Shown: positions 30,806 through 57,401 of the stretch, piece by piece
Layout of the letters: every line of letters begins with the position of its first letter
How positions within the stretch are numbered: the first letter of the stretch is position 1
Assembly: GCF_046299575.1 (NCBI RefSeq)
Contig: NZ_JBKBHX010000006.1
Span: 105,565-169,564 of the forward strand
Origin: Thermaurantimonas sp.
GTDB taxonomy: Bacteria; Bacteroidota; Bacteroidia; Flavobacteriales; Schleiferiaceae
Reading direction: 5' to 3'
Length of the DNA stretch: 64,000 nt
Translations under genes and position numbers: made by a program
The notes under the pieces: model-generated
Seen by the model: only the letters and a program-made list of their open reading frames with translations
Database searches by the model: none
What the model was told of the DNA's origin: nothing

Positions 30806-33800
30806 TTATATTCTTACCGTTAATTGGTCTGCAAACAACTCTGCTTGTTTTAATACGGTATCAATTGCCTTTTGTTGTTTATCAGGTGGATAGCCATATT
30901 TATTCAGTGTGCGCTTTACGATTACCATGAGCCTTGCTCTGGCACTTTCTCTTATGGTCCAGTCTATGGTTGCATTGGCTCTTACTTTGTTGGCTATTTC
31001 TTTTGCTATTTCTTTTGAGGTCTCGTTACCTAATACCTGAACGGCACTGTCGTTTACTTCCAAAGCATTGTAAAATGCCACTTCATCGGGTGTGAGTCCG
31101 AGCTTTTCGCCTTCTTTATCGGCTTCTTTTATTTCTTTGGCTATATTGATGAGTTCCTGAATAATTTCAGCGGTTGTAAGTAAATTATTCTGATAGCGTT
31201 TGATCGCGCTTTCAAGCATTTCCAGCAATTTCTTGCTCTTTACCAGATTTGTTTTGGCTCTTACTTTCAGCTCGTTGTTCAGAATTTTTTTCAGCAACTC
31301 GATTGCTAAATTTTTGTGCTGCATTCCCTGAACTTCCAACAGAAATTCATCGGAAAGTATTTCCAATCCTGAAATATCGGGCTTCTGAATTCCCGCAGCA
31401 TCAAAAATGTCAATCACTTTATCGCTGCTCAATGCTTCATCCACAATTTGTTTGATGGCGGTTTCTATTTCCACATCTGATTTACCACCACCAACAGGAG
31501 CATCAAACTTTACCAATCTTGATTTAACGGCTTGAAAAAACGCCACTTCGGTCAGATGAGGCTGTACTTCTTCTTTGGTAATGCAAAGCGAAAGTGCCTG
31601 ACTTAATAAACTTACCTCACGAATAAACCTCTCTTTACCGTTCTGTAACCCTAAAATGTGTTCTTCTGCTTGCAGAATGATGGAGAGTTTTTCCCGTTCA
31701 TCTGCAACAAAAAATCGGCGGTAATTGAATTTGAAACTGCCTTCGTAATAGGCCTGTGGTTCTTCAACCAAAATATCATTCCGGGTATTGCTCTCTTCAT
31801 AGAACATTTGCTGCACCACTTCCAGTTTCTCTTTGAAAATATCAAATGCTTTTTCGATGTTTTCTGCCGGGTCGCCTTTTCCACCTGCTTCACCGTAAAA
31901 TGAAAGCGCTTTCTTTAAATCGGTTCCAATGCCCAAATAATCCACAATCAAACCGCCCGGTTTGTCTTTGAAAACACGGTTTACCCGTGCAATGGCTTGC
32001 ATCAGGTTGTGTCCTCGCATGGGCTTATCAACGTACATCGTATTCAGGCAAGGAGCATCAAAACCCGTAAGCCACATATCCCGAACAATTACCAACTTCA
32101 GCTCATCAGCCGGATTTTTCATGCGTTCGGCCAACATACGGCGTTGTTCTTTAGTGGTGTGGTGTTGGGCAATTTCGGGGCCGTCTGCACTATTGGTGGT
32201 CATGACTACTTTAATAACCCCTTTAGTCAAATCGTCATGGTGCCATTCCGGACGAAGTGCAATAATTTCTTTGTAGAGTTCGGCAGCAATTCTGCGGCTC
32301 ATGGCTACAATCATTGCCTTGCCTTCAAAAACAGCCTGGCGTTGCTCAAAATGCGAAACAATGTCCCGGGCTAAATTTTTCAAACGTTCCGGATGTCCCA
32401 CAATGGCTTCCAGCTTTGTCCATTTGGCTTTGGCTTTTTGACCACCCCACCCTTCGGGTACCCCTCCATCGGAGGGGAATTCTTGGTCTTGTTCTAATTC
32501 CCGGTCGAATTCTTCAATTAAGCGTCTGCCTTCTTCGTCCAGATTTACCTTTGCCAGGCGACTTTCATAATAAATGGGTACCGTTGCCCCATCATCTATG
32601 GCATCTTTTATATCGTAGCGGTCGATGTAATTGCCGAAAACCTGAGGGGTGTTTCTGTCTGTACCTTCAATAGGCGTACCTGTAAAACCAATGTAGGTGG
32701 CATTGGGTAAAGCATCGCGCATGTATTTGGCAAAGCCGTAAGCAATGCGTTTGCCGATGACTTCTTTGGTTACTGCGTCTTTTTCGTCAATCAATTTTGC
32801 TTCAAAGCCATATTGCGTTCGGTGGGCTTCGTCGGCAATTACTACAATATTTCTGCGGTCGGAAAGTTGGGGGAACTTATCGCCCGATTGAGGTAAAAAC
32901 TTCTGAATAGTGGTAAAAACAATGCCCCCACTTGCCACCTTCAATAGTTCTTTGAGATGCTCTCTGCTTTCGGCCTGCACAGGTTCTTGCCGCAGCAACT
33001 GAACCGATGCCGCAAACGTATCAAACAACTGGTCGTCTAAATCGTTGCGGTCGGTAATGACTACTATGGTTGGATTTTTCATTTCGGGCGAAGTGATGAG
33101 CTTGCCCGCATAAAAAACCATACTCAAACTTTTGCCCGAACCTTGGGTGTGCCAAACCACACCGCCCCGCTTATCTCCGTTTTCGGCTGATGCCTGTATG
33201 GTTGATTGAACGGCTTTATTGACGGCATAGTACTGATGATAGGCCGCTAATTTCTTAACGGTATGCACCTGGATCAATCCTGTTTTGGGGTCTTCTTTTT
33301 TCGTTTTTTCAAATACAATAAAGTTGCGAACCAAATCCAGCAGTGTGGCGGGTTGCAGCATACCTCTGAGCAGCGTTTCTAATTGTGGCTTAAACCGGGA
33401 GGCCTCTCTAATTCCGTCAACGGTTTTCCATGCCATAAAACGCGAAAAATCGGCACTTACGGTGCCTGCTCTGCATTCCAGGCCATCGGAAATAATACAG
33501 ATAGCATTGTATGTGAATAAGCTGGGAATAGTGGCTTTGTAGGTTTGTATTTGCTGATACGCACTTTTGATGTCGGCCGTTTCGCTGGCGGCATTTTTCA
33601 GTTCTATGACTACCAAAGGCAAACCATTGACAAACAGCAACACATCGGGGCGTTTGTGCTGGTTGTTTTCAATAATGGTGTATTGATTTACTACTAAAAA
33701 TTGATTATTGGCCGGATGCTCAAAGTCAATCAATGCCACTTCGTGGCTGCGTTCATAGCCGTTTTCCTGATAGGGTACTTTTACCTTTTCAACCAGCAAG

Positions 33801-34105
33801 CGGTGAAATTCTTCGTTGTTGTGCAGCAAGTCAGGCGAAGCAATCCTTAACACTTTTTGAACAGCTGCTTCCTGTGCATCTAAGGGAATGTGCGGATTGA
33901 TTTTAGCAATGGCAGTTCTCAGCCGATTGAGCAAAAGAATTTGATTGAAACTTTCTCTTTCGTTACCACCCCGTACTTCGGACACCCCTCCGGAGGAGGG
34001 GAATTCGGGGGGAGAACAGGCAGAGCCCGGCAAGTATTCCCAGCCCTGCGATTGCAGAATTTCAATTGCTGACTGTTCGATGATATTTTCGGATAGAATA
34101 TTCAT
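30806..34105 (-). CDS. hsdR: Type I restriction enzyme R subunit
   Basis: 1099 aa. WHTQGSGKSLSMVF (helicase motif I), VVIADEAHRTQYG (DEAH), GFTGTPI, and the C-terminal HsdR domain. Its start ATG (34105..34103) overlaps the stop of the upstream gene (ATGA). Confidence 0.95.
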   Translation of the reverse strand: MNILSENIIEQSAIEILQSQGWEYLPGSACSPPEFPSSGGVSEVRGGNERESFNQILLLNRLRTAIAKINPHIPLDAQEAAVQKVLRIASPDLLHNNEEFHRLLVEKVKVPYQENGYERSHEVALIDFEHPANNQFLVVNQYTIIENNQHKRPDVLLFVNGLPLVVIELKNAASETADIKSAYQQIQTYKATIPSLFTYNAICIISDGLECRAGTVSADFSRFMAWKTVDGIREASRFKPQLETLLRGMLQPATLLDLVRNFIVFEKTKKEDPKTGLIQVHTVKKLAAYHQYYAVNKAVQSTIQASAENGDKRGGVVWHTQGSGKSLSMVFYAGKLITSPEMKNPTIVVITDRNDLDDQLFDTFAASVQLLRQEPVQAESREHLKELLKVASGGIVFTTIQKFLPQSGDKFPQLSDRRNIVVIADEAHRTQYGFEAKLIDEKDAVTKEVIGKRIAYGFAKYMRDALPNATYIGFTGTPIEGTDRNTPQVFGNYIDRYDIKDAIDDGATVPIYYESRLAKVNLDEEGRRLIEEFDRELEQDQEFPSDGGVPEGWGGQKAKAKWTKLEAIVGHPERLKNLARDIVSHFEQRQAVFEGKAMIVAMSRRIAAELYKEIIALRPEWHHDDLTKGVIKVVMTTNSADGPEIAQHHTTKEQRRMLAERMKNPADELKLVIVRDMWLTGFDAPCLNTMYVDKPMRGHNLMQAIARVNRVFKDKPGGLIVDYLGIGTDLKKALSFYGEAGGKGDPAENIEKAFDIFKEKLEVVQQMFYEESNTRNDILVEEPQAYYEGSFKFNYRRFFVADEREKLSIILQAEEHILGLQNGKERFIREVSLLSQALSLCITKEEVQPHLTEVAFFQAVKSRLVKFDAPVGGGKSDVEIETAIKQIVDEALSSDKVIDIFDAAGIQKPDISGLEILSDEFLLEVQGMQHKNLAIELLKKILNNELKVRAKTNLVKSKKLLEMLESAIKRYQNNLLTTAEIIQELINIAKEIKEADKEGEKLGLTPDEVAFYNALEVNDSAVQVLGNETSKEIAKEIANKVRANATIDWTIRESARARLMVIVKRTLNKYGYPPDKQQKAIDTVLKQAELFADQLTVRI
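32442..32482. repeat. 41-nt palindrome-containing element inserted in frame in hsdR (encodes EFPSDGGVPEGWGG)
   Basis: CCACCCC ACCC TTCGG GTA CCCCTCC ATC GGAGGGG AATTC. It contains a 7-bp-arm palindrome and is a near copy of 33966..34006. Confidence 0.8.
33966..34006. repeat. 41-nt palindrome-containing element inserted in frame in hsdR (encodes EFPSSGGVSEVRGG)
   Basis: CCACCCC GTAC TTCGG ACA CCCCTCC GGA GGAGGGG AATTC. Same orientation and same reading frame as the 32442..32482 copy. Confidence 0.8.
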
Positions 34106-36852
34106 TTATTCAGATGATATTTATTTTTTCTTCTTTGAAAAGCAATTTTCCCACCCTCAAGGATATTACAAACCGCAGTATTTATTACAGGATTTTCTAA
34201 TGAACCGCTGTCATAAGATAGTTTTTCTTCGTTGTTTGTTGCAACAATGACCTGTTCAGCGTCTGCATTTACTACAAGGTTTGCATTATGAGTTACAATT
34301 ATAACTTGCCTGTATTTCTTTATTTCTTTGAAAATATCAGTAAGGTCATTAAAGATAAAATCGTTATCAAGATCATCTTCGGGTTGGTCGAAAATAATAG
34401 GTTGAGAAAAAATATTTGTAGCTAATTTTAAGCACAAATAAATAGTTCCTCTCTGACCTACTGAGATTTTATTCAAAGGTTTTCCTTTATAAGTGATTTT
34501 GGGCTGAACATATAAATATTTAGAACGGGATTGAAGATCATAAAATATTTTTTCAAACTCATATCTGTTAGAACGTAAATAATTTTCAATTTTTTGAAAA
34601 GATGTATCAATGTTTCTCAGAAAATCAAGGTAATTCTCTAAATCGATAATTCCAACTAATCCTTTCAGTTCTTCATAACTGTTTTTTCCTTTGAAAATTC
34701 TGCCGTCTAACTGTTCTTTTACGAGGTCGTAAAATGCATTTATATCAAAAACTATTTCTCCCTCAATCTTGATTTCTCTGTTGTTAATAATTTTTTTCAT
34801 TAATTCCTTTTGCTGCTCATTCCAACCCTCTTTTCCTTGTAGAAGCCTACTCCAGCTTTGATCAATTGTAGATTTATGACGTAATAATTCCGAATAAATT
34901 AAATCAGCTATTTTCTTTTTATTGTTAAGAGCTGATTTTCGTTGGTTTTCTTTCTCTTCTATTTCTTTCTTTCGTCTTTCGTAAGATGAAATGGTGTGTC
35001 TGAACCGTTCTACATTTGAAAGCAGGGAGGCTATATCCCCTTTATAGTCCTTAAAATCGTTTTTAATTTTTGCATTTTCTTCTTGAGCTTCTTTTATTGT
35101 ATCGTCAATATTTTTAATAGCAGCATCAATACCATCAATTTGTGGTTTAAAATCTAATAAGGGAATACCCTTGTTTAGTTTAGTAATTTGTTCGTTTGTT
35201 TTTTGTAGAAATTCAGTTAGAGATGTTTTGAGTTGCTCTAAACTGAGTTTTTCGCTTTCACAGTCTTGCAGTTTTTCAATGTTTGCTGTATACTTTTGTA
35301 GTTTTTCTTTATTTTCCTCTGTTGTAATCCTATCTAATAAATTACGATTTTTATCTATTTCCTGCTGAATATAAGATTTCTGGTTTATAGGATTATTATT
35401 TTCATCCCGCTTGTTAAACCATTCCAGAATAGTATTAAATTCGGATCTATAATTCTGGATAGTTTCATCAATTTTCTGGTCAAATGAAAGCGTTTCAAGT
35501 TCCAAAATCTTCTTAATTTCCTCTCCCAATCCTTTTGCATCTTTTACCTTCTCTTTCACTTCACTTTGGGATATAAAAAGAAAGGGTAAATCGTACTGAG
35601 TATCCAATGGAAAAGTCTCATCCGTGCTATTAAGTGATTTTTTCCATTTTACTTTAAAATCTGATGATAGATTAAATTCAGATTTTTCAAAAGGAACATT
35701 GTATTGTTTAAACCCGTTTGCAAAATAGTTTATCAAAACACTTTTACCGGCTCCTCGTCCTCCAATAATTGTTACTAAGTTCTGATTTAATGGGATTCTG
35801 TTTTTCTCAAATTGTAATTGCTCATTCTCGAATACATTTACAGGATTTTCAATTTCAATTTCTGTAAAGGCAGATTTTTCAAAGTCATATGCTGGGTTAG
35901 TATTCTGTATTTTTACCCTTTCTTCCGGCTCATAAATGATTTGCTTTAGCCCTTCGAAAGTAAGATCTGATTTTATCCAAACTTTTCTATCTTGATTCTT
36001 TGTAAATAACTCATCAAATGTATGCGCATCACTTCCTCCAATACATGCTTTTAAACTTTTAAATTCATTAATGAAGTCTTCCGAAGAAGGATGTTTTTTG
36101 CCTAAAGCCCATTGTATAGTATTGGGGTTTGTAGCAATTAAAATGTCAGATTTCTGAATAAGTAATTTTCTTGCCTGATGATCCTGACCATTCCACGAAA
36201 CATTGCTTAAATCTTCATCAGAGGGCAAGGCAATTAGATATTTGCCTTCAAAGATGTTGCGTTTATTTGCAAGAATTTCACATATCTGTTTGTCATCAAC
36301 AACTGCATTCATCATTCCAATATACAAAGGTGATTTACCTTTGAATTGTGTGTGTTGCTCAATTAATTTTTCACCTAATTTTTCTAGATTATTTTTTTTC
36401 AATTTTCGCTTTTCATCTTCACTCTGTGGGGCGGCCTCATAAATAAAATCAATTTCATGCAGGAAATTTTCCTCAATATCAGTAAAAGAAATATCGTCAG
36501 ATAGTAAGACATGAAAGTTTATTCTATTGGAACCCACCAGTTTGTTAAGTCGAAATTCTATGTTCGGCAAGACGTAAATTGATTTGATCTTCTCAATTTC
36601 TTCTGAGTTAAAAAGCTCTTTTAATTTATCTTCTTTTTCAAAATACTCAGTCTTTATCTTCTTATAACCGTCAATTGTGAAATAGTCGGTTATTCCGATA
36701 GCTGAAACATTGTTTGCAATGGCTCTTTTAAATAATTCTTTTACATAAGTATCCCAATCGTTTCCAAAGCCATTATATAAATGAGAATATGGGGTGTGAA
36801 TATGCAAATCCCATAATCTCCATTCTGAACCTCTTTTAAAATTTTCTTTCAT
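34102..36852 (-). CDS. PHP-domain phosphoesterase fused to a coiled-coil ABC/SMC-like ATPase (Ppl-like architecture), embedded between hsdS and hsdR
   Basis: 916 aa. The N-terminal PHP motifs are WDLHIHTPYS, PNIEF, NFHVLL and IGGSDAH. Then come Walker A (IIGGRGAGKSVLINY), about 400 aa of K/E-rich heptad-like sequence, a signature-like ISVGQRGTIYLCL, Walker B/D-loop (QPIIFDQPEDDLD) and an H-loop (VIIVTHNANL). Confidence 0.8.
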   Translation of the reverse strand: MKENFKRGSEWRLWDLHIHTPYSHLYNGFGNDWDTYVKELFKRAIANNVSAIGITDYFTIDGYKKIKTEYFEKEDKLKELFNSEEIEKIKSIYVLPNIEFRLNKLVGSNRINFHVLLSDDISFTDIEENFLHEIDFIYEAAPQSEDEKRKLKKNNLEKLGEKLIEQHTQFKGKSPLYIGMMNAVVDDKQICEILANKRNIFEGKYLIALPSDEDLSNVSWNGQDHQARKLLIQKSDILIATNPNTIQWALGKKHPSSEDFINEFKSLKACIGGSDAHTFDELFTKNQDRKVWIKSDLTFEGLKQIIYEPEERVKIQNTNPAYDFEKSAFTEIEIENPVNVFENEQLQFEKNRIPLNQNLVTIIGGRGAGKSVLINYFANGFKQYNVPFEKSEFNLSSDFKVKWKKSLNSTDETFPLDTQYDLPFLFISQSEVKEKVKDAKGLGEEIKKILELETLSFDQKIDETIQNYRSEFNTILEWFNKRDENNNPINQKSYIQQEIDKNRNLLDRITTEENKEKLQKYTANIEKLQDCESEKLSLEQLKTSLTEFLQKTNEQITKLNKGIPLLDFKPQIDGIDAAIKNIDDTIKEAQEENAKIKNDFKDYKGDIASLLSNVERFRHTISSYERRKKEIEEKENQRKSALNNKKKIADLIYSELLRHKSTIDQSWSRLLQGKEGWNEQQKELMKKIINNREIKIEGEIVFDINAFYDLVKEQLDGRIFKGKNSYEELKGLVGIIDLENYLDFLRNIDTSFQKIENYLRSNRYEFEKIFYDLQSRSKYLYVQPKITYKGKPLNKISVGQRGTIYLCLKLATNIFSQPIIFDQPEDDLDNDFIFNDLTDIFKEIKKYRQVIIVTHNANLVVNADAEQVIVATNNEEKLSYDSGSLENPVINTAVCNILEGGKIAFQRRKNKYHLNK

Positions 36853-36867
36853 ATTGCCTTTCTGATT

Positions 36868-37968
36868 TTAACTCTTCACTCTTATTTCCCCGCTCATCAG
36901 CTTCGGCAGCAGCGTATCCCGCAACTGCGTAAGCGTGCGAATTTGCTGGGTGTTGGATTTGATTTTTTGGAAAAGGGGTTCAATTTCTTTATCAAAGTGC
37001 TTTATCTTTTCCTTTGGGGGAATAAGAAAATCCAGTGTTCTGAATGCTGCCTTTGAAATCTCTTGAAATACAGAACCGTTTCCTGCATTTTCTATCATTT
37101 CCATATTAGCCTTACACCACAAAAACATAAAATAGTTTGAAACGATTTTGTCGCATATAATTGCGATATACCCTTGATTGATGGCAACAGGAATTTCAGT
37201 TATAGCTAAATATCCAATAGGTGCTCTTGATGAAAGCAATAAAGTGCCAACAGGCAGAAGTCCAGAACTTATTTGCTTTAAACCTTCTTCTGTGATTTTG
37301 CGTGATGTGTCAAAAAGAAATATGGAAGTTGTGTTTGATAAATCTCTTGGAGAAGTCCAATGAATATTACCATCCCAATATTTCTGTTCTGTTGTGCTCG
37401 GTGTTGTTCCGCCTTTCATTGAAACAACATCATCAATAGTTCCAACCTCCCAACTCTCATCTGCTTCTTCTATGAACCACTGCCTGAAGAGGGTTTCAGC
37501 TAATTGCTCTAAGGTTTTGTTTTGGCGGTGCAGCAGGTCTATTTTGTCGTCTAAGCTGCTGAGTACTTCGGCTATGGCGGTTTGTATTTTTACATCATCC
37601 GTAATTGAAATATCTATTGAATTGAGTAAAGTTTGAGTTACAAGTGGGTGACTTGAACCCTCAGCATAACTGTTTAAATCTAAATTCCTCAAGAAATAAT
37701 ATAGAAACTTGGCATTGTACCCATTCTTTGGTTTTGCTGCTAATGCATTATCTGAAACCCAAATAGGTTTATCTTGATAATAAACAGAACCACAATAAGC
37801 ACCAACTCGCCCAATTATTATTGTTTCCCCATTGTAATTTGAACTATCACAATAACCTAAAATCCCGTTTCCACCAAACACGGGTATATCCCCTTTTGTT
37901 TTTGGTCTTTCCTTGCCATTTCCAAACTGAACAAATTCTGATAGTTTATATTCTTTCCACTCACTCAT
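36868..37968 (-). CDS. hsdS: Type I restriction-modification specificity subunit
   Basis: 366 aa. Two target-recognition halves are separated by the conserved spacer LDDKIDLLHRQNKTLEQLAETLFRQWF, and the C-terminus has the matching repeat IRTLTQLRDTLLPKLMSGEIRV. Confidence 0.9.
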   Translation of the reverse strand: MSEWKEYKLSEFVQFGNGKERPKTKGDIPVFGGNGILGYCDSSNYNGETIIIGRVGAYCGSVYYQDKPIWVSDNALAAKPKNGYNAKFLYYFLRNLDLNSYAEGSSHPLVTQTLLNSIDISITDDVKIQTAIAEVLSSLDDKIDLLHRQNKTLEQLAETLFRQWFIEEADESWEVGTIDDVVSMKGGTTPSTTEQKYWDGNIHWTSPRDLSNTTSIFLFDTSRKITEEGLKQISSGLLPVGTLLLSSRAPIGYLAITEIPVAINQGYIAIICDKIVSNYFMFLWCKANMEMIENAGNGSVFQEISKAAFRTLDFLIPPKEKIKHFDKEIEPLFQKIKSNTQQIRTLTQLRDTLLPKLMSGEIRVKS

Positions 37969-38029: not shown

Positions 38030-38821
38030 TTACGCTGCTTGTTTTAATTTAGCAATGTTTTCGGGGGCATGCCTTTCGGTCCAAAGAATAAAATCGGCAT
38101 TTTTGCTACGCAAAGCGTCTAAGTATTCTTGCTGTATTTCTTTTTCTTCGTTATTGATTATAGCCAGTCCTATTACTTGTTTGTTGGTAATTTTTTCTCT
38201 TACGCTTTTAATATCCTCCCAGGTAAAAAGAAAATTGGGTATATTCAGTTTATTTAGAGTATTGAATGCTTTCAAAACAATTTCTTTCTCGCGGTAGGCA
38301 ATTTGAAAATCGAAAGTAAATTCCAGTCCTGTGCTTCCTTTAGAAATAAATTGGGGGGTGTAAATAATTTCTTGTTCGTCAAGATAATTGCGTACATCTT
38401 CTTTAAAGATAGAAGCAACGGTGTGCTTGGCGAGCATATACATATCGTTAATTTCAGAAATGGCGGAAATGAGATTATGTTTTTTCTGAGCGAAGTTATT
38501 TTCAGTGGCTTCTACAATTAACTCATCATTTTGTAATTGTATGCCATAGGTGAGTAAAATCCGTTCGAGCAAATCTTTTCGTTTAGGCGAACGAGTAATA
38601 GCCGCCCCTGTTAGTTCAAGATTTTTGAGCGTAATTCCATCATCGGACATAAGAATTTTGCCATTGTCTTTTTTGGCGTAAATTTCTAATGTATCATTAA
38701 ACAAGCCAATGAAAGGCGTGCTGATGACTGCCCAATTCGTACCTGTATCGGTTACAATGGTTGTACGTTCTTTCAAAAAATCGTAATATTTATTGATAAG
38801 TTCGTTTATCCAATGGTTCAT
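38030..38821 (-). CDS. Uncharacterised protein (263 aa); possibly DUF1828/DUF1829-type (recollection only)
   Basis: The start ATG overlaps the upstream stop (ATGA, 38821..38818). No catalytic motif recognised. The length and the N-terminal pattern (INELINKYYDFLKERTTIV...ISTPF...DTLEIY...DDG.T...L) resemble DUF1828+DUF1829 proteins as I remember them. I have not verified this. Confidence 0.55.
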   Translation of the reverse strand: MNHWINELINKYYDFLKERTTIVTDTGTNWAVISTPFIGLFNDTLEIYAKKDNGKILMSDDGITLKNLELTGAAITRSPKRKDLLERILLTYGIQLQNDELIVEATENNFAQKKHNLISAISEINDMYMLAKHTVASIFKEDVRNYLDEQEIIYTPQFISKGSTGLEFTFDFQIAYREKEIVLKAFNTLNKLNIPNFLFTWEDIKSVREKITNKQVIGLAIINNEEKEIQQEYLDALRSKNADFILWTERHAPENIAKLKQAA

Positions 38822-39345
38822 AGAAGTGAAGGTTGCAGTATGTTAAAAACAGTTTGCAAATGAATTAATTTGTTGAATGAAAAAAATGCCTGCTCAATAT
38901 CGTTATTGTTTGAGATAGTTTTCACGGGAAAACTATCCTCGGTTAATGGCAAAGCCCAATCTAAGGTAGTTTTATATCCTTCCACATAATAATGAATGTG
39001 ATGTTCGTGATAATCGAAAAACTTACCTGCAAAAGGATGAAAAATTTCAGGAACTTTGGGTGTAATTGTTTCGGGGTTTTTGTGTTGTCCGTTATAGTCT
39101 ATCCTTATCAGTCCAATTTTAGTGTCATCATCAAGCAGATATAACGTAAGTTTGAAATGATTTTTCTTGCTTTGGGTTATATCATAGATAAATGTGAAAT
39201 CGGTATTATCAGGCGAAATAAGCGTATATCTTACCGTAAATGGAAATGGTTGTTGATGGATTTCAATTTTATCTTCCAATACACCATTCATTTCTACTTT
39301 TTTTGGTAATTCTAAAAGATATTGTGCTTGTTGTATCGAGAACAT
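38818..39345 (-). CDS. Uncharacterised protein (175 aa), His-rich C-terminal half
   Basis: The ORF is translationally coupled to orf263. It contains IRIDYNGQHKNPE ... FHPFAGKFFDYHEHHIHYYVEGY. I recognise no family. Confidence 0.5.
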   Translation of the reverse strand: MFSIQQAQYLLELPKKVEMNGVLEDKIEIHQQPFPFTVRYTLISPDNTDFTFIYDITQSKKNHFKLTLYLLDDDTKIGLIRIDYNGQHKNPETITPKVPEIFHPFAGKFFDYHEHHIHYYVEGYKTTLDWALPLTEDSFPVKTISNNNDIEQAFFSFNKLIHLQTVFNILQPSLL

Positions 39346-39469
39346 TTTGTTGCAGTATTTTTAGTTGATATGTAACAAATTTTATATCTCAAATGCCTTC
39401 GTAGTTATTGATGAGTTTTATGTCGTAATTCATGGTATTGAAATTTCGTTGGTTTTAATTGTCTAATGT

Positions 39470-39916
39470 TTAATCAGTGCTGCCTTCGGGATCCTCAGGC
39501 AGCATTTGGGGAGTTTTATTATCGCTGCCTTCGAGTGCCTCAGGCAGCGGCACCTCAGGGTGGCTGAGGTTCTCGAAGCCACCCTGAGTGTTCTCGAAGC
39601 CACCCTGAGTGTTCTCGAGCTCACCCTTTTTTAAGTCACGATAAGCAAGCGCTAATTGCGGAAGTAATTCCGGTGTTCCATTTATCAACGCTTCTTTCTT
39701 CTTCCGGCTCCAACCCTGCACTTGCTTTTCGCGATAAAATGCTTCGTCAATGCGTGCATATTCCTCAAAATATACCAGCTTCACGGGTAATCTTTTCCTG
39801 GTATGATTCGCCCCTTCACCCGCCTGATGTTGAGCCAATCGCAGTTCAAGATTGGTAGTACTGCCGGTATAGTAACTGCCGTCAGCGCATTCTAATATGT
39901 ACATGTATCCTTTCAT
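39470..39916 (-). CDS. GIY-YIG nuclease family protein (core about 95 aa) with a repeat-encoded C-terminal extension
   Basis: GYMYILECADGSYYTGSTTNLELRLAQHQAG...RLPVKLVYFEEY...A...REKQVQGWSRKKKEALI is the small GIY-YIG (URI) domain. The last 50 aa or so (ENTQGGFENTQGGFENLSHPEV...) are translated from the hairpin/tandem repeats at 39479..39628. Confidence 0.85.
   Translation of the reverse strand: MKGYMYILECADGSYYTGSTTNLELRLAQHQAGEGANHTRKRLPVKLVYFEEYARIDEAFYREKQVQGWSRKKKEALINGTPELLPQLALAYRDLKKGELENTQGGFENTQGGFENLSHPEVPLPEALEGSDNKTPQMLPEDPEGSTD
39479..39628. repeat. Array of three stem-loops sharing a 13-nt loop, plus three 21-nt tandem units
   Basis: 39479..39503 is GCTGCC-TTCGGGATCCTCA-GGCAGC. 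39524..39548 is GCTGCC-TTCGAGTGCCTCA-GGCAGC. 39556..39586 is CAGGGTGGC-TGAGGTTCTCGAA-GCCACCCTG. 21-nt units start at 39566, 39587 and 39608. Confidence 0.85.
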
Positions 39917-39947
39917 ACTTTCATCTATGACGGGGGCTTCGGCTATT

Positions 39948-39978
39948 CAGGGTGGCTTCGAGAACCTCAGCCACCCTG
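39948..39978. repeat. 31-nt stem-loop, the exact reverse complement of 39556..39586
   Basis: CAGGGTGGC-TTCGAGAACCTCA-GCCACCCTG. Together with 39556..39586 it brackets the GIY-YIG core ORF as a perfect 31-nt inverted repeat. Confidence 0.85.
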
Positions 39979-40008
39979 TGTATTCTAAAAGCAAGCACCC
40001 TGAAAAGC

Positions 40009-41622
40009 TCAGCCCTCATGTATGTTTATTTTAGATAAATTAGCCATGATTCTATCATTCAATTCTTTCTCTTCCTGCATTTGTTTTTCCAGTTCGGCTT
40101 TGAGGGAAGCGAAGCGTTCGGCAAAGTTGAAGTCGTCTTCTTCTTCCGGTAGCCCCACGTAGCGGCCGGGTGTTAAGGCATAGTTTAGTGCTCTGACTTC
40201 CTCAATGGTTGCACTTTTGCAAAAGCCCTGAATGTCTTGGTAAGCTCCGCCTTCGACAGGCTCAGGCATCGCTTCGGCCGGCTCAGGCATCGCATTCCAA
40301 CGATGGTAAGTTTGGGCAATTTTTTGTATGTCGGCATTGCTAAGTTCACGGGTTCTGCGGTTAATCAAATGACCCATATTGCGGGCATCGATAAAAAGGA
40401 TTTGCCCTTTTCGGTTTTCACTTTTCTTTTTTCGTATAAACCAAAGGCAAGCAGGTATTTGCGTATTCAAAAACAATTTAGTGGGCAGGTTCACAATGCA
40501 GTCAATCAAATCGGCATCAACCAGGGCCTTGCGAATTTCGAATTCACCGCCCGCATTGCTGGTTAGCGAGCCTTTGGAAAGCACAAAGCCGGCCCTTCCG
40601 TTGGGAGCGAGATGATAGAGGAAGTGCTGTATCCAGGCATAGTTGGCATTGCCTGCCGGAGGAACCCCATACACCCATCGCGGGTCGTTTTTAAGCAATT
40701 CGCCACTCCAGTCGCTATCGTTAAAGGGCGGATTGGCAATGATAAAATCGGCTTTAAGGTCTTTGTGGGCATCGTTTAAAAAACTGCCTTCGTTGTTCCA
40801 TTTCACATTGCTGCTGTCGATGCCACGTATGGCAAGGTTCATTTTGCAGAGCCGCCAGGTGGTTTGGTTGCTTTCCTGTCCGTAAATAGAGATACGGTCT
40901 GATGGATTAAGCTGTAATTTTCTTCCGTTGTTTTTTTTGTAATAATCCTGATGGGCTTTAATAAATTTTTCGCTTTGTACAAACATGCCCCCGCTTCCAC
41001 AGCAAGGGTCAAATACCCTGCCTTCATAAGGTTCGAGCATTTCTACCAAAAGTTTTACTACACTTTCAGGCGTATAGAACTGACCTCCTTTCTTGCCTTC
41101 TGCCAGGGCAAATTGCCCCAGGAAGTATTCGTACACTCTGCCCAGAATATCTTTGGCTTGGGCTTCTTTAGTGCCCAGTGTTGCGGTACTAATCAGGTCA
41201 ATAAGTCCGCCCAGGCTGGTTTTGTCTAATTTTTCCTGTGCATATACTTTGGGCAAAACGCCTTTCAAAGAGGGGTTGTCTTTTTCTATGGCATCCATGG
41301 CATCGTCAATGTCTTTGCCAATGGAGGGCAGTTTTGCTCTGCCTTGCAGCCACGACCAACGAGCAGAAGGCGGCACATAAAACACTTTCTCGGCGACATA
41401 TTCATTTTTGTCTTCGGGGTCGGCTCCTTCATAGTCGCCTTTGCCTTCTTTCAGTTTGTGGTAAAGTTCTTCGAAAGCATCGGAGATGTATTTTAGGAAA
41501 ATAAGCCCTAAAACCACATGTTTGTATTCGGCTGCATCCATGTTTTTACGGAGCTTGTCAGCCGCTTTCCAGAGTTTTTTCTCCAAGGATTCTTCTGCTA
41601 TTTCTTTTGCTTTTTTGGCCAT
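40009..41622 (-). CDS. hsdM: Type I restriction-modification N6-adenine DNA methyltransferase subunit
   Basis: 537 aa. N-terminal HsdM domain ([32 protein letters not shown]), [12 protein letters not shown] (motif I) and IIANPPFN (motif IV). Confidence 0.95.
40251..40292. repeat. Two 21-nt tandem units inside hsdM (encode [14 protein letters not shown])
   Basis: CTTCGACAGGCTCAGGCATCG (40251..40271) and CTTCGGCCGGCTCAGGCATCG (40272..40292). The core TTCGRNNGGCTCA resembles the loops of the GIY-YIG-flanking hairpins. Confidence 0.8.
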
Positions 41623-51718: not shown

Positions 51719-52287
51719 TTTATTCGATTAATAAGTTTTTTATTCTCTGATTTTTTTTCTTGAAGAGCCACCACTTCAAGCGCGTTTTTATCGACCACAG
51801 CCGTAAACTCCAGTCCTGCACTGTAGAGGCGAATGCTCACCATGTTTTTGTTTACCTGAATTACCTCGCCTTCATGCGACACCAGTGGTCCCTCGATGAT
51901 CTTTGCCTTAGCTCCTACAGGTATCTCTTTTACTTCGATTACAGCATGCTGAAATTCAGCGAGAAAAGATTTAAGGCGATCCATTTCCACATCGCGCACA
52001 ATTGCAGGCTTTTTAAGCCAATACACAAAATTGAGAACACCAGGTGTCTGCAGTACTTGGATGCGTTCATTCTCTTCCACGCGCACAAATACATAGGATC
52101 GTATTATTACCTCATCTACGTATTTTCGCCTATCGCTCCATTGTTTGAGCACTCTGCGAATCGGACAGTAATTTTCGATACTTTGTCGGGTGAGCAAATC
52201 GGCGACCTTCTTCTCATTTCTGGGTTTTGTGTAAACGATCATCCATTGCTTACCCATAAAAAGTGTTTTACGTTGTTTAGCTTGCAA
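51715..52287 (-). CDS. NusG-family transcription antiterminator, UpxY-like
   Basis: [18 protein letters not shown]...YCP...[18 protein letters not shown] (NGN domain) plus a C-terminal KOW-like [15 protein letters not shown]. Confidence 0.7.
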
Positions 52288-52345
52288 AGTAAAAACGCTC
52301 TGATATAAAGCCGATCATGATGTGAAAAAATTATTTCAAAATTTT

Positions 52346-52368
52346 TGTACTATGTATAGCATAGTACA
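52346..52368. promoter_or_regulatory. Perfect 9-bp inverted repeat TGTACTATG-TATAG-CATAGTACA upstream of padR (candidate autoregulatory operator)
   Basis: Read directly. It lies 43 nt upstream of the padR GTG start, in the divergent gap with the UpxY-like gene. It contains ATGT...ACAT half-sites of the kind reported for PadR operators, but with 10-nt spacing. Confidence 0.4.
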
Positions 52369-52410
52369 TTCTTTTATTTATATCTTTGTTTAATAAACAT
52401 CATCTGTAAA

Positions 52411-52743
52411 GTGAATGAATTAAAGGAGCAAGTCAACGCACAAATGCGCAAAGGCGTTCTTGAACTCTGTGTATTAGCTATTCTAAATCAAAGCGATGCA
52501 TATTCAAATGATATAATTGAGGCATTAAAAAAGCACGAAATTATCCTGGTAGAAGGCACGTTATATCCCCTACTTACGCGCATGAAAAACCAGGGACATC
52601 TCACCTATCGATGGGAAGAAAGCAACCAAGGCCCACCGCGTAAATACTATTCGATTACTCAAGCGGGAAAAGAATATTTCAATACATTAAGAACCATATG
52701 GATTGATTTTTCTTCTTCTATCAACAAACTTTTGCAACAATGA
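52411..52743 (+). CDS. PadR-family transcriptional regulator
   Basis: GVLELCVLAILNQSDAYSNDIIEALK......EGTLYPLLTRMKNQGHLTYRWEES..GPPRKYYSIT..G is the PadR wHTH signature. Confidence 0.85.
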   Translation: MNELKEQVNAQMRKGVLELCVLAILNQSDAYSNDIIEALKKHEIILVEGTLYPLLTRMKNQGHLTYRWEESNQGPPRKYYSITQAGKEYFNTLRTIWIDFSSSINKLLQQ

Positions 52744-54251
52744 AAAAAGCAATATCAGTACAGGTAGCCCGTGTACCATTTACTATGAGCTCAGAAGCTT
52801 TTGAAACTCTGGCGTTGTATTTAGAAAATATCAAGAAAGTCATTCATCCTGATTATCGGGAAGAAACGCTGAATGATATTGAATTGAGAATTGCAGAGTT
52901 GTTAAATCAAAAAAAGCAAAATAATCATATCATTGAAAAAGAACTCATTGACGAAATTGTACAAATTATAGGAAAACCAGAAGAATTTTTAGATCATAAA
53001 GAAACCTCAAATACCTCTTCAGAACTTTATAAATTTGATAAGAAACTTTTTAGAGATCCCGACAATAACATTTTGGGAGGAGTTGCTGCCGGATTCTCTC
53101 ATTATTTTTCTGTTCATAAAATCGTTTTTAGGCTTTTTTTCATAGTTCTAACTTTTTATCAAGGTATTGGGATTTTATTATACCTTTTCTTTTGGGTTAT
53201 TTTACCAAAAGCAAAAACATATGTAGAAAAAATGATTATGAAGGGCGAGGAGATTCCATCTCAATATTTAGATCAAGTAATAATTGACAAATACAATTCC
53301 AAAAAATTTTTAGATTCGAGAGCTTTACATAACAAATTATTTGAAAAATTACTTGATTTTATAGGAAGTATTTTGATTTATACCAAAAATTTTTTGGTAA
53401 ATTTACTTTCCCGTAGCTCACTGGCAATTTTGTCTATTGCAATTATATTGTTTTTAATAATTACCTTTTTAGCTAGTTATGAAATTCTAACAGATAGCAT
53501 AACAATCAATAATGTTAAAATTACAAAGGAAAATGCATTAAACTATATTTTATTAATCTTCCCTTCTACCCTTTATGCAGGTTTATTTTTTATAAGTATT
53601 ATTACTTTAATTGTAAGTCTATTAGCTGTATTGAAAATAGGATATAGAAATTTGACTAAGAAGAATGGTATAAAACGGGCTAAAAGTCTTTATCTTGCAC
53701 TTTTAGCATTATTACTTTCTTTTGTTATAACAAGAGTTTTAATATATTTTATTGAAAAAAATTTTTCTGTGCAAACTTCTTTTATACTTCAATCGGATAA
53801 TTTTTCAATATCAGAAGGTGAAATTTTACATGTTGTACCAAATAATATATTCGCATTTGATGTTCTTCCTATTGTATTAAAAGGAGATTCAGTATATTCA
53901 TCAAATATTGATTTTGTTTTTATTAAAAGTCAAACAGATAAAGCGATGTTTACTGTAAAAGCTGAAGCTAAAGGAGCGAATGAATTGGAGGCTTTTAAAA
54001 ACATTCAAGGCGTCAGATATCAAGTATATAAAGAAGGCAATAGAATAAATGTTTTTTCCTATTTTTCATATCCAAAATACATTGGATTTAGAGATCAAAA
54101 AATAATTATTGAAATTCACCTTCCTGTAAATCAAATAATATATTTACCCGAAAATTTCTCAGGTCATTATGATGTTTTTGAAGATGAAGAATCAGAAGAC
54201 TTATTACCAGGATATTATAAAATGACAGAAGAAGGACTAATTAAATTATAG
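52740..54251 (+). CDS. PspC domain-containing membrane protein
   Basis: KLFRDPDNNILGGVAAGFSHYFSVHKIVFRLFFIVLTF is the PspC domain. The start overlaps the padR stop (ATGA). Confidence 0.75.
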   Translation: MKKAISVQVARVPFTMSSEAFETLALYLENIKKVIHPDYREETLNDIELRIAELLNQKKQNNHIIEKELIDEIVQIIGKPEEFLDHKETSNTSSELYKFDKKLFRDPDNNILGGVAAGFSHYFSVHKIVFRLFFIVLTFYQGIGILLYLFFWVILPKAKTYVEKMIMKGEEIPSQYLDQVIIDKYNSKKFLDSRALHNKLFEKLLDFIGSILIYTKNFLVNLLSRSSLAILSIAIILFLIITFLASYEILTDSITINNVKITKENALNYILLIFPSTLYAGLFFISIITLIVSLLAVLKIGYRNLTKKNGIKRAKSLYLALLALLLSFVITRVLIYFIEKNFSVQTSFILQSDNFSISEGEILHVVPNNIFAFDVLPIVLKGDSVYSSNIDFVFIKSQTDKAMFTVKAEAKGANELEAFKNIQGVRYQVYKEGNRINVFSYFSYPKYIGFRDQKIIIEIHLPVNQIIYLPENFSGHYDVFEDEESEDLLPGYYKMTEEGLIKL

Positions 54252-54294
54252 AGTTCCTTACCAACATATGTTCTGAAAGTGTGAATTTCTATAT

Positions 54295-57200: not shown

Positions 57201-57399
57201 AGAAGATAAGAAAAAAATGTTTGGGCTTTTTCAACGTCTCTCTGCTAAGCCCACAAAAGGAGAAAGTTCTACGGGTTTAGGTTTATATATTGTAAAAAAT
57301 TATACGGAACTAAATGATGGATTTGTAGAGCTCGAAAGCACTTACGGCGAAGGATCTACCTTTCATATTTACTTACCTCTGGTAGAAAAAATTGTTTAA
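54295..57399 (+). CDS. Sensor histidine kinase with a large periplasmic beta-propeller/Y_Y_Y-type sensor region
   Basis: 1034 aa. A long extracytoplasmic region, one transmembrane segment (YLNLYFIIFLVILIVIILLYI), a coiled coil, an H-box (GVYAHDLKNPLSAI), an N-box (FQNLLSNAIKYS) and G-boxes (DQGPGF, GLGLYIV). Confidence 0.85.
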   Translation: MSKISNVRKFFIFLIIFLHSIFIYSNPKPLFKTFGPTITKGSGINWQVTQTKEGLIIVASSAGVKIFDGYNWEIVKNRLNSEVYSIHYNPEDCNIYVGGLEDFGYIELDNSNKWTYISLFNLLPLSQTSFGKIWQTIITENVYFISEKFIFEYDQMKITIHQPENNTFYKAFVYKNTFFVQEEGVGLFAIVGGKKKFIKNSNIFNDKLIEFILPTTQGAKVFFSDGVVAQCKIENNEVKDVIFESNQVSKYIKNGSLRKILHLFDGNYAFALGNAGVVITDSSFHIKCIYNQENKIINEFVNDIYEDYFGNLWTAEEYLIRFINYGSPYSIYTNSDGIFGVIHSFVDLKNAVYLSDQYNIYIFENSELKKIHQINEIIRKIYKIDENSFFVLTNKAIYIFEKQKFTKLFEFSEGKNIFTFDNANKIFGVYNNHLILIFSIKFSKVSFEFLKTLDQVEISDIVVDTNKRIWFSTTSSGVGFLFEGKIKFYDTKSGLPSYFNNRIVYVNNQIYILTQEGIFKPDKYLNNLRRTSDFGDYISKQFVTNINPSKFGLFIKLTNEKNQNEFYLINSSLTIDSDFNKIFKYLPERGFAGWHLTHDDKLLISFIEGLYVLDLNKSHRLYQPLEITVQQMLYNQKGYYDEKRNRIVLNYDYGPLQIFITSPYYEGQDKITYFYRIKNGNNEWQELKNSNIIVIPQLHFGNYEIQIYARNIYGINSEIKSIPIHVKTPWYLNLYFIIFLVILIVIILLYIQKLRESYLAKKNKELEELIQLRTKELIDEKKELERSKEELYELSKQRNQLLGVYAHDLKNPLSAIDGIKELMEVTISTTDLDESIKKELMEYLSMIKSSTTQMMSIIQDILSSVRQDSFKQKIDKKIVDIIEILSEHYSLMNNYARQKNIQIHFQPKGKYLVNVDERKIGEVFQNLLSNAIKYSNENSTVEIGINTEIRNGKEFVKISIKDQGPGFTEEDKKKMFGLFQRLSAKPTKGESSTGLGLYIVKNYTELNDGFVELESTYGEGSTFHIYLPLVEKIV

Positions 57400-57401
57400 G
57401 T

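Follow-up and report, generated by a model that had tools for sequence, protein, structure and literature searches.

A GIY-YIG nuclease gene with flanking hairpin repeats, inserted in a type I restriction-modification operon of Thermaurantimonas sp.

Introduction

Why is a small nuclease gene, located inside a type I restriction-modification (R-M) operon, bracketed by two perfect inverted copies of a DNA hairpin? The question is raised by a stretch of 64,000 nucleotides (nt) from Thermaurantimonas sp. (RefSeq assembly GCF_046299575.1, contig NZ_JBKBHX010000006.1, positions 105,565 to 169,564), to be referred to as the window, in which a GIY-YIG nuclease gene and its hairpins follow hsdM. An initial annotation had proposed that they form a small mobile cassette. 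The analysis presented here favors, with a probability of about 60%, a compact module that consists of a GIY-YIG nuclease gene and its cognate hairpin repeats. The nuclease would recognize the hairpins by their loop and nick the DNA, the hairpins would multiply in cis, and the module would travel as a passenger of R-M operons.

Small GIY-YIG nucleases with flanking hairpins are already known. The Ssn proteins (Chenal et al. 2025, Nat Commun, PMC11893778), of a 94-residue type (CDD cd10448), cut single-stranded DNA (ssDNA) beside the hairpin repeats NTS and SRM. Units of a GIY-YIG gene and hairpins, for which the initial annotation knew of no established mobilization mechanism, are thus no longer an unknown kind, as such a system and its cleavage beside hairpins have been published (PMC11893778). 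On the other hand, its analogy with repetitive extragenic palindromic (REP) elements and their REP-associated tyrosine transposases (RAYT) is apt. Chenal et al. draw the same parallel for Ssn, and also noted a layout like that of an insertion sequence (IS) (PMC11893778).

Structure of the locus

The nuclease gene is located on the minus strand at 39470-39916 and encodes 148 amino acids, according to the list of open reading frames (ORFs) and their translations. Residues 2-74 match the GIY-YIG domain of Pfam (PF01541) with an E value of 9e-19 (68 bits, against a cut-off of 22.6), and the core shared by the family covers residues 1-97 (about 39626-39916). The catalytic-type residues Y6, Y16, R26, H30, and E63 are invariant over 20 homologues. 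In the AlphaFold2 model, the core has the order strand-strand-helix-strand-helix with pLDDT values of 81-91, and the values fall below 50 from about residue 99. On these grounds the protein is placed in the GIY-YIG superfamily, and by the sequence and fold comparisons given below it is of the single-domain, UPF0213/SLX1-like kind. No second GIY-YIG copy was found in the window, and no exact copy of the protein is on record in public assemblies. In the set of species-representative genomes, which does not contain that of the window, the best match is 79% identical.

A repeat search finds the inverted repeat at 39556-39587 and 39947-39978, with 100% complementarity and 359 nt between the arms. 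The repeat is exact and located where the initial annotation had placed it, with a length of 32 rather than 31 nt. Both arms are hairpins in their own right, with a stem of 10-12 bp (GGTGGCT/AGCCACC core) and a loop of 11 nt, and the sole difference between the two hairpins is the orientation of the loop. The arms bracket the GIY-YIG core, as had been claimed, but the left arm is inside the ORF and is read through as the C-terminal tail of the protein. This tail (residues 99-148, ELENTQGGFENTQGGFENLSHPEVPLPEALEGS...LPEDPEGSTD) runs through an array of 21-nt units, the left arm, and two more hairpins.

Folding energies were computed for single-stranded DNA, with z-scores relative to shuffled sequences. 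The upstream hairpin (right arm, 39947-39978) is located in the spacer between hsdM and the nuclease gene, at -62 to -32 from the gene start, and is in the F orientation on the sense strand of the gene. It has a stem of 10 bp and a loop of 11 nt (GAGGTTCTCGA), and folds with -12.5 kcal/mol (z -4.7). The first complete downstream hairpin (left arm, 39554-39588, at +328 to +362) is in the R orientation, with a stem of 12 bp, the loop TCGAGAACCTC on the sense strand, and an energy of -15.1 kcal/mol (z -6.4). It is abutted by the tandem array of hairpin-derived 21-nt units (39564-39627; 3.1 copies, 93% matches, score 105 in Tandem Repeats Finder), which is translated into TQGGFEN repeats. The two further hairpins reported outside the left arm are both present, in the F orientation. 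One (39523-39549) has the stem CGCTGCCT/AGGCAGCG and the loop GAGGCACTCGA, encodes the peptide LPEALEGS, and folds with -10.1 kcal/mol (z -3.5); the other (39478-39504) has the stem TGCTGCCT/AGGCAGCA and the loop GAGGATCCCGA, with -9.2 kcal/mol (z -3.5). The downstream hairpins span +328 to +438 from the gene start. The degenerate fragment described outside the right arm was found as well (39996-40014). It is located at the edge of the insert defined below, overlaps the stop codon of hsdM (40009-40011), and provides the last codons and the stop of the present hsdM (IHEG, stop).

The motif TTCGNNNNNCTCAG occurs six times in the 64 kb, with 0.38 copies expected, and all six are within 39485-40286. 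Two of them make up an in-frame repeat inside hsdM (40251-40293), which is discussed below. A match to the loop pattern at about 62157-62169 has no stem and is attributed to chance. A scan of 38800-40600 against Rfam gave nothing at E ≤ 1 and no intron match. Promoter and terminator scans at the locus were at chance level, and the hairpins have no T-runs.

Pairing of nuclease subclass and hairpin loop

A protein search finds thousands of homologues. The closest have cores that are about 65-90% identical and tails of 0 to more than 120 residues, in many of which the peptides GGFENLSH and LPEALEGS recur. A scan of one genome per species provided 80 homologous loci (L001-L080), with proteins 57-87% identical to that of the window. 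They are from Bacteroidota, Candidatus Kuenenia, Ignavibacteria, Anaerolineales, Dehalococcoidia, Spirochaetota/Leptospiraceae, Fibrobacterales/Chitinispirillaceae, and Cardiobacteriales, and the close homologues span at least eight phylum-level groups.

Most of the other GIY-YIG genes also have hairpins next to them, a point that the initial annotation had proposed to check. The loop motif (GAGG..C.CGAAG or its complement) has 273 matches in 732 kb, in 63 of the 81 loci (the 80 and the window). Relative to the gene start, 69 of these matches are at -300 to -1, 139 at +282 to +700, and only 4 within the core. A stemmed hairpin is found downstream in 70 of the 80 loci, where it starts right after the core and is in the R orientation in 51 of the 70. 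Upstream, a stemmed hairpin is found in 40 loci (F orientation in 26), and the other 40 have none. Hairpins are present on both sides in 33 loci, and the inverted F...R arrangement of the window, observed in 15, is the commonest two-sided order. Identical arms are peculiar to the window. Elsewhere, the loop is common to the hairpins before and after the gene, and their stems usually differ.

There is a close correspondence between the protein and the loop. The core of the subfamily has an extra C-terminal helix-turn, which ends with AYRD, NYTQ, or CxNxTH. The 80 proteins were sorted by this motif, and stemmed hairpins were sought from -400 to +730 of each gene. Hairpins with the class A loop (GAGGnnCnCGA) are located at 53 of the 56 loci with AYRD proteins, those with the class B loop (GAGCGnAGnCGA; for example, GAGCGTAGCCGA) at all nine loci with CxNxTH proteins, and those with the class C loop (GAGCnTGnCGA; for example, GAGCTTGTCGA) at all six loci with NYTQ proteins. 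Cross-matches of the AYRD, CxNxTH, and NYTQ classes with other loops number 1, 1, and 0, respectively. The end of the helix-turn thus tracks the hairpin class, which argues for specific recognition of the hairpin by the nuclease. This class pairing is the strongest evidence that nuclease and hairpin are a cognate pair whose specificity would be located in the loop.

A partly independent check started from the hairpin. At least 120 metagenome stretches picked by the class A hairpin alone, together with 8 viral ones, gave 128 loci. In 18 of these, a GIY-YIG gene of the family is located within 70 nt of the hairpin; 16 of the 18 encode proteins of the AYRD class and none of the other classes. The remaining 110 loci have no GIY-YIG gene within the stretch examined. 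A perfect stem of at least 6 bp is present in 141 of the 266 hairpin copies in these loci. The 8 hairpin matches on viral contigs are not beside a GIY-YIG gene, and they give no sign of a phage origin. With so many copies lacking a gene, the hairpin also qualifies as a REP-like repeat with a dispersed distribution. It is often found alone or in arrays, and it is the hairpin, more than the gene, that looks like the multiplying unit.

In one locus (L010, 1054-2643 and 4273-5907), two GIY-YIG copies are about 3 kb apart. In this locus and in L058, the six-frame ORF that contains the nuclease gene stays open across the hairpin tail and runs on, in the same frame, into hsdS (521 and 513 residues).

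Conservation of the hairpin as a DNA structure

The hairpin unit has 25-31 nt, with a stem of 7-10 bp whose sequence is freely variable and an essentially invariant loop of 11 nt (GAGGYWCTCGA). The consensus over 256 distinct copies is G-N-T-G-S-C-T for the first strand of the stem, GAGG(C/T)(T/A)CTCGA for the loop, and A-G-S-C-A-N-C for the second strand. Watson-Crick pairing at stem positions 1-7 amounts to 98, 97, 91, 93, 82, 77, and 60%, respectively, in these 256 copies. Position 3 is GC in 113 copies, CG in 93, AT in 20, and TA in 8, and position 6 is GC in 124, TA in 37, and CG in 30. In 72 of the copies, the covariation score is 0.508, as compared to 0.099 after shuffling (reached by none of 500 shuffles) and 0.04-0.16 with slid partners, and there are 94 double-sided changes with 29 expected. 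The fraction of paired cells in this subset, 94.8%, is flattering, as the set was shortened by hand from 119 with the loss of some poorly paired copies; the figures for the 256 copies are unbiased.

Across homologues, the hairpin DNA is read in all three frames (giving FENLS, SRTSA/SRASA, or REPQP) or is located 3' of the stop codon, and the compensatory changes in the stem lead to non-conservative amino-acid changes. Judged by this pattern of substitution, selection acts on the structure of the hairpin and not on the encoded peptide. The three reading frames, together with the predicted disorder, mark the tail as read-through of repeat DNA. A role at the DNA level is favored over one at the RNA level, since hairpins of both orientations are found before as well as after the gene, Rfam has no match, and there is no terminator signal above chance.

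Insertion of the cassette

Gene order was compared on the contigs that encode close orthologues of HsdM (80-89% identical). Three of the operons have no GIY-YIG gene. In Hydrotalea (L222, HsdM 86% identical), hsdM is followed after 5 nt by the genes M24A, M24B, and hsdS; in L221 (88%), by a gene for 306 residues, M24A, M24B, and hsdS; and in L223 (85%), by a NOV_C gene and hsdS. The fourth operon (L220, 89%) has the order hsdM, M24A, M24B, three genes, a GIY-YIG gene, and hsdS. Its nuclease gene, located directly before hsdS, is of the NYTQ class and has class C hairpins.

Of the empty sites, for which the initial annotation had suggested a search, L221 serves to define the bounds of the insert. 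In the alignment to L221, the homology of hsdM ends at 40024, about 35 nt short of the ancestral stop, and restarts at 39461. The inserted cassette, on the minus strand, therefore covers about 39462-40023 (approximately 562 nt). The segment at 39394-39461 (minus strand) is a relic of the ancestral 3' end of hsdM and the first 45 nt or so of the L221-type 306-residue gene, displaced downstream by the insertion (local alignment score 96). The window has lost the remainder of that gene. The only candidate for a target-site duplication is a low-complexity likeness of about 15 nt on both flanks, which is not convincing.

The cassette is a real insertion with presence/absence polymorphism. The initial proposal of a mobile cassette stands as far as a discrete unit is concerned, absent from L221-L223 and represented at another position in L220 by a member of another class, but not in the form of a transposon with terminal inverted repeats. 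Rearrangement at such a site is also evident in a metagenome contig (L195, 1-1300), which contains M24B, the GIY-YIG gene, a hairpin array, a pseudogene fragment of the 3' part of hsdM (with an internal stop), hsdS, and hsdR. The hsdM fragment begins at residue 461, just beyond the site of the insert in the window hsdM (residues 445-458), and the arrangement is read from its gene order as a rearrangement with a breakpoint at the hairpins.

The initial annotation had implied a transposon, in which the GIY-YIG protein acts as a transposase, binds the two inverted hairpins as its ends, and mobilizes gene and ends together, either as an IS or as the autonomous partner of hairpins that resemble miniature inverted-repeat transposable elements (MITEs). 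The perfect 32-nt inverted repeat around the gene, the true insertion with known empty sites, the prevalence of the F...R order among two-sided loci (15 loci), and the MITE-like dispersal of solo hairpins would all fit such an element. However, this order is found in only 15 of the 80 loci, 40 of the 80 have no upstream hairpin, the two ends usually differ in their stem sequences, and in several loci the ATG of the gene overlaps the stop codon of hsdM, leaving no upstream end. The target duplication is ambiguous at best. Two proteins (P0004 and P0081) were followed through all samples that contain an identical copy, and each is in a single operon arrangement, hsdM-GIY-hsdS, in which the stop codon of one gene overlaps or adjoins the start of the next; no second genomic context was found. 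There is thus no evidence of several copies in one genome, as would be typical of an IS. Moreover, we know of no GIY-YIG transposase in bacteria. Of the marks of an insertion sequence, terminal inverted repeats are not conserved at both ends across the family, the target duplication is unconvincing, and multiple identical copies were not seen for the two proteins followed. Transposition of this kind is considered unlikely.

Association with type I R-M operons

With the window proteins as the only queries, hsdM, hsdS, or hsdR is found within 5 kb of the nuclease gene in 33 of the 80 loci, and a Pfam scan adds two further R-M neighbors (L025 and L048). The association thus holds for about 40% of the 80 homologues, usually with the gene between hsdM and hsdS. 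Type I R-M genes are also present in 6 of the 18 GIY-YIG loci picked by hairpin. In most cases hsdM ends 0-300 nt before the nuclease gene, on the same strand. Its stop codon overlaps the ATG of the nuclease gene in L003 and L049, and the upstream ORF reaches the ATG in L013, L073, and L077.

The neighboring hsdM is only 23-75% identical to that of the window, as compared to 57-87% for the nuclease. The nuclease is more conserved than the adjoining hsdM, which indicates that it has moved between unrelated operons. Horizontal spread of the module is evident from this comparison. In loci with no hsd match, 18 of 20 ORFs adjoining the gene appear unrelated to R-M; such neighbors include transporters, RtcB/RlaP, an aminotransferase, peptidases, BipA, CTP synthase, and others.

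These neighborhoods bear on a second alternative, that the nuclease is an accessory of type I R-M or of defense in general, acting, for example, against incoming ssDNA or in the processing of DNA ends, and that the hairpins are regulatory or self-recognition sites. The frequency of nearby hsd genes, the typical place between hsdM and hsdS with overlapping codons, and the setting in the window, a defense island with PDC-M24A/B and a Ppl-like ATPase, are consistent with this function, and Ssn in Neisseria modulates the uptake of transforming DNA (PMC11893778). An accessory would not, however, be expected among housekeeping genes in more than half of the loci, nor to be far more conserved than the hsdM next to it. 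The close operon relatives without the nuclease are intact in gene content, and no PADLOC model matches the window nuclease. An accessory role is accordingly regarded as improbable. Type I R-M operons appear as the preferred carriers, possibly the beneficiaries, of such modules.

Repeats within the hsd genes

The hairpins and their 21-nt units are also found inside host genes. In the window, hsdM contains an in-frame repeat of two 21-nt units (40251-40293, minus strand) with the loops GAGCCGGCCGA and GAGCCTGTCGA, which are of the class C type and not of the resident class A. Their stems are decayed, and the repeat folds no better than shuffled sequences (z 0.7). It corresponds to 12 extra residues after 'YHRW' in the window HsdM that are absent from five orthologues. 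In orthologues that are 80-89% identical (P0122, P0157, P0145, P0192, and others), the loop after 'YH(N/R)W' contains 0, 1, 2, 5, or 8 heptapeptide (21-nt) units, and in still others it contains unrelated repeat peptides (SPPLEGVGGG; LNYDSSDLHDEHDL...). The alignments mark this loop as an insertion hot spot. The units in the window hsdM do not fold and match the class C nuclease of L220, and they are read as a relic of an earlier class C tenant.

Stemmed class A hairpins are located within hsdM (L001), between the two recognition domains of HsdS (L001 and L007), and within hsdR (L002, L048, and L195).

A different palindromic repeat is present in the window hsdR, as two in-frame copies on the minus strand (33947-34012 and 32423-32488) of the form GAATTCCCCTCC-nnn-GGAGGGG...CCGAAG...GGGGTGGT, with the peptides EFPSSGGVSEVRGG and EFPSDGGVPEGWGG. 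A search with the pattern CCCCTCCNNNNGGAGGGG for these repeats gave no match because the loop length in the pattern was wrong; the coordinates given here stand. The 'FPSxGGVxxGRGG' peptide of this repeat is found in other loops of the HsdM orthologues P0121, P0123, P0141, P0162, P0192, and P0218.

In a Spirochaetota metagenome-assembled genome (OY760686.1; L031, 2962-4989), an entire DUF559-like endonuclease is inserted in frame within hsdM, at the same loop, with direct APRPPEGG repeats on either side. By its layout, this insert also combines a nuclease with repeats in a cassette, but one of another kind.

A further possibility is that the module is more than a passenger and that the breaks it makes, together with their repair, diversify type I R-M and defense operons. 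The hairpins would then be located at the boundaries of modules, namely the hsdM-hsdS junction, the permissive HsdM loop, the linker between the two target recognition domains of HsdS, and hsdR. Cuts at these positions would drive the gain, loss, and shuffling of cassettes (the window as compared to L220, L221, L222, and L195) as well as the variation in heptapeptide copy number in HsdM, and might alter the geometry of HsdS and hence its specificity. If this were true, the three classes with their loop 'codes' would be natural, reprogrammable, hairpin-loop-specific DNA nucleases distinct from Ssn. We consider this extension speculative and rather improbable.

Proposed mechanism

The favored explanation remains the compact module of nuclease gene and cognate hairpins. 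Whenever replication, conjugation, or transformation leaves the DNA single-stranded, the hairpins would extrude. Taking Ssn and the structure-specific nuclease SLX1 as analogues, we infer that the protein recognizes the folded hairpin, chiefly via its loop, and nicks the single-stranded DNA nearby. Break repair or slippage at the nicked sites would multiply the 21-nt units and the hairpins, mostly near the gene and in cis. Such multiplication would explain why units are found in tandem, why the orientations alternate, and why neighboring genes contain in-frame copies. Nicking and repair at the hairpins would also promote local rearrangement. The nuclease would thus drive both the multiplication of the hairpins and the movement of the cassette. 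The module itself moves horizontally, and in this it would mostly be carried along by type I R-M operons.

Several observations weigh against this explanation. The gene often abuts hsdM or hsdS with overlapping stop and start codons, and looks as much like a settled member of the operon as like a selfish element. No pre-existing hairpin is present at the insertion point in hsdM in the empty relatives. The cleavage of ssDNA is transferred by analogy, and the window protein is outside the tight cluster of SRM-flanked Ssn proteins. The pattern of conservation is also the reverse of that in Ssn, with a conserved loop and a free stem here. Finally, the counts of hairpins and genes cover the window and the fetched loci rather than whole genomes.

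The association of gene and hairpins could in principle be a coincidence, in which the hairpins are ordinary REP-like, terminator, or RNA-stability elements that gather in gaps and are unrelated to the nuclease. Other palindromic repeat families do sit in frame in the same genes of these genomes, and the majority of the hairpin copies are solo. The class-specific pairing of protein and loop (53/56, 9/9, and 6/6), the concentration of hairpins within 700 nt of the gene in loci of many phyla, the occurrence of both orientations, contrary to a role in RNA only, and the lack of T-run terminators above chance or of an Rfam match make this reading strongly disfavored and very unlikely. The view that the C-terminal heptad repeats are a functional protein domain with the DNA symmetry as a by-product is hardly tenable, as the recurrence of GGFENLSH and LPEALEGS in tails from several phyla is outweighed by the range of tail lengths, the use of three frames or of DNA after the stop codon, the non-conservative effect of compensatory stem changes, and the low pLDDT.

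Other features of the window

The cassette is located directly downstream of hsdM (40009-41622), the type I methyltransferase gene (Pfam N6_Mtase with E=1e-111, and HsdM_N). All genes of the operon are on the minus strand. After the nuclease gene come a DUF6978 gene (38818-39345), which matches the PADLOC candidate PDC-M24A with E=9e-61, and a DUF1828/DUF1829 gene (38030-38821), which matches PDC-M24B with E=2e-99. They are followed by hsdS (36868-37968), for the specificity subunit, and hsdR (30806-34105), for the restriction subunit, with a gene for a PHP-domain and ATPase protein of 916 residues (34102-36852) between them. The best PADLOC match of this protein is Ppl (E=5e-25), in its C-terminal part only. 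The PDC-M24A/B pair is again found after hsdM in L220, L221, and L222, and is therefore a stable insert of this R-M lineage.

Two observations are away from the operon. Positions 52000-58000 have a G+C content of 28-31%, as compared to about 42% elsewhere, and may be foreign DNA. An inverted repeat of 17 nt (ATTCCCTCGCTCAGGCT / AGCCTGAGCAAGGAAAT) at 8424-8475 is 88% complementary with a spacer of 18 nt, and its loop is unrelated to the GIY-YIG hairpins.

Comparison with known systems

The module most resembles Ssn in its general organization. The protein is a small, single-domain GIY-YIG nuclease of about 95 residues, hairpins are present 5' and 3' of the gene (on both sides in 33 of 80 loci here and in 42% of Ssn homologues, PMC11893778), and solo hairpins are far more numerous than genes. 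Both have a wide horizontal distribution and an IS-like, repeat-gene-repeat appearance.

There are differences, however, in the protein, the repeat, and its setting. Membership in the Ssn clade is defined as nearly synonymous with cd10448, or by blastp E < 1e-10 at 75% coverage to N. meningitidis SsnA (PMC11893778). The distance of the window protein was gauged with three SRM-flanked proxies (Shinella L216, Azospirillum L219, and Sphingobium L081), which score 80-120 bits with each other and 43-50 bits with the window protein; about 50 bits is estimated to fall short of 1e-10 in a search of one genome. The window protein does not have the W-x-R-x-W-K...NP-x-W C-terminal signature of the proxies. 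With this position outside the SRM-flanked cluster, the transfer of Ssn activity is an analogy. The SRM pattern HGTCWYN(0-2)YYVSBRHN(0-5)WNVSBRGN(0-2)RNCYNB has no match in the 64-kb window or in the 668 kb of L001-L080, and it does match the positive controls, namely the NTS consensus and four sites at each of the plasmid-borne Ssn-type genes in L216 and L219. The hairpins described here are therefore not SRM or NTS. Ssn owes its specificity to the stem and the flanks of the hairpin and does not require the loop (PMC11893778). The strong linkage to type I R-M and the in-frame spread into genes are not found in the main text of Chenal et al. (PMC11893778).

The closest relatives in sequence and fold are the UPF0213 proteins (E. 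coli YhbQ, B. subtilis YazA, BH0048, and EF2693) and SLX1, a group that corresponds to cd10456/cd10449 in CDD. The window protein scores 74 bits to BH0048, 62 to EF2693, and 61 to YazA. A phmmer search of the Protein Data Bank finds BH0048 (1zg2, E=2.9e-16) and EF2693 (1ywl, E=6.5e-12), Foldseek ranks 1zg2, 1ywl, and then Slx1 entries, and tblastn gives matches to yhbQ and yazA. The core has in common with them the G-x-G-A-x-x-T motif that follows the YIG strand. UPF0213 proteins do not have the extra C-terminal helix-turn of this subfamily. In records from a plasmid collection, the YhbQ and YazA loci are among conserved housekeeping genes and have no SRM matches, a search that did not cover class A-C hairpins. 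Measured against the three proxies, the module is apparently a branch separate from Ssn, on the UPF0213/SLX1-like side.

As in REP/RAYT systems, a nuclease gene is located beside short palindromic repeats that are presumably its targets, with solo copies, inverted pairs, and clusters, recognition of an ssDNA hairpin is the proposed mode, and the gene is in one context per protein where this was checked. Unlike RAYT, an IS200/IS605-like Y1 HUH enzyme, the protein is a GIY-YIG enzyme, and the hairpin (cG-GTGSCT, loop, AGSCAC-C) has no GTAG or CGTC tag. These tags characterize the two REP superfamilies, and no dedicated enzyme was found for the CGTC repeats (Di Nocera et al. 2013, PMC3733652). 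The module is spread across phyla, unlike REP/RAYT, described as mostly vertically inherited (10.1101/2022.05.22.493013). The in-frame copies in hsdM, hsdS, hsdR, and the nuclease tail recall Rickettsia palindromic elements and intragenic REPs (PMC3733652). They differ from these elements in their sequence family, the absence of the CGTC tag, the linked cognate nuclease gene, and the variable-number 21-nt arrays at one HsdM loop.

A small GIY-YIG gene between or at the ends of conserved genes, present or absent among close relatives, is also a feature of T4 Seg/Mob and I-TevI. Unlike homing endonucleases, the window protein has no DNA-binding extension, its tail is disordered read-through of repeats, and the fold match to I-TevI is weak (E 0.48). 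To our knowledge, hairpin repeats are not a feature of free-standing phage GIY-YIG homing endonuclease genes. Assignment as a group I intron or homing endonuclease was rejected. The only NCBIfam match, to TIGR01453 (grpIintron_endo), is below threshold with 12.7 bits against a cut-off of 56, and Rfam finds no intron.

A full-text literature search for the loop sequences and tail peptides returned only unrelated primers. None of the titles and abstracts found on GIY-YIG with hsdM/hsdS, or with RAYT, REP, UPF0213, or YhbQ, describes the module. Proteins of the UPF0213 type are widely distributed, and the entries for the two bacterial relatives with solved structures name them as hypothetical proteins. 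If the mechanism proposed here holds, the pairing of GIY-YIG nucleases with hairpins reaches a second branch of the superfamily, and a candidate enzyme is gained for one of the palindromic repeat families found in frame within genes of Bacteroidota. The three specificity classes visible from sequence provide testable enzyme-substrate pairs, of interest for ssDNA-cutting tools. Relative to Ssn, with its small GIY-YIG nuclease and flanking hairpins, the new elements are a second GIY-YIG branch with a hairpin family of its own, an apparently loop-based specificity in three classes, the association with type I R-M operons, and the in-frame expansion of heptads in host genes.

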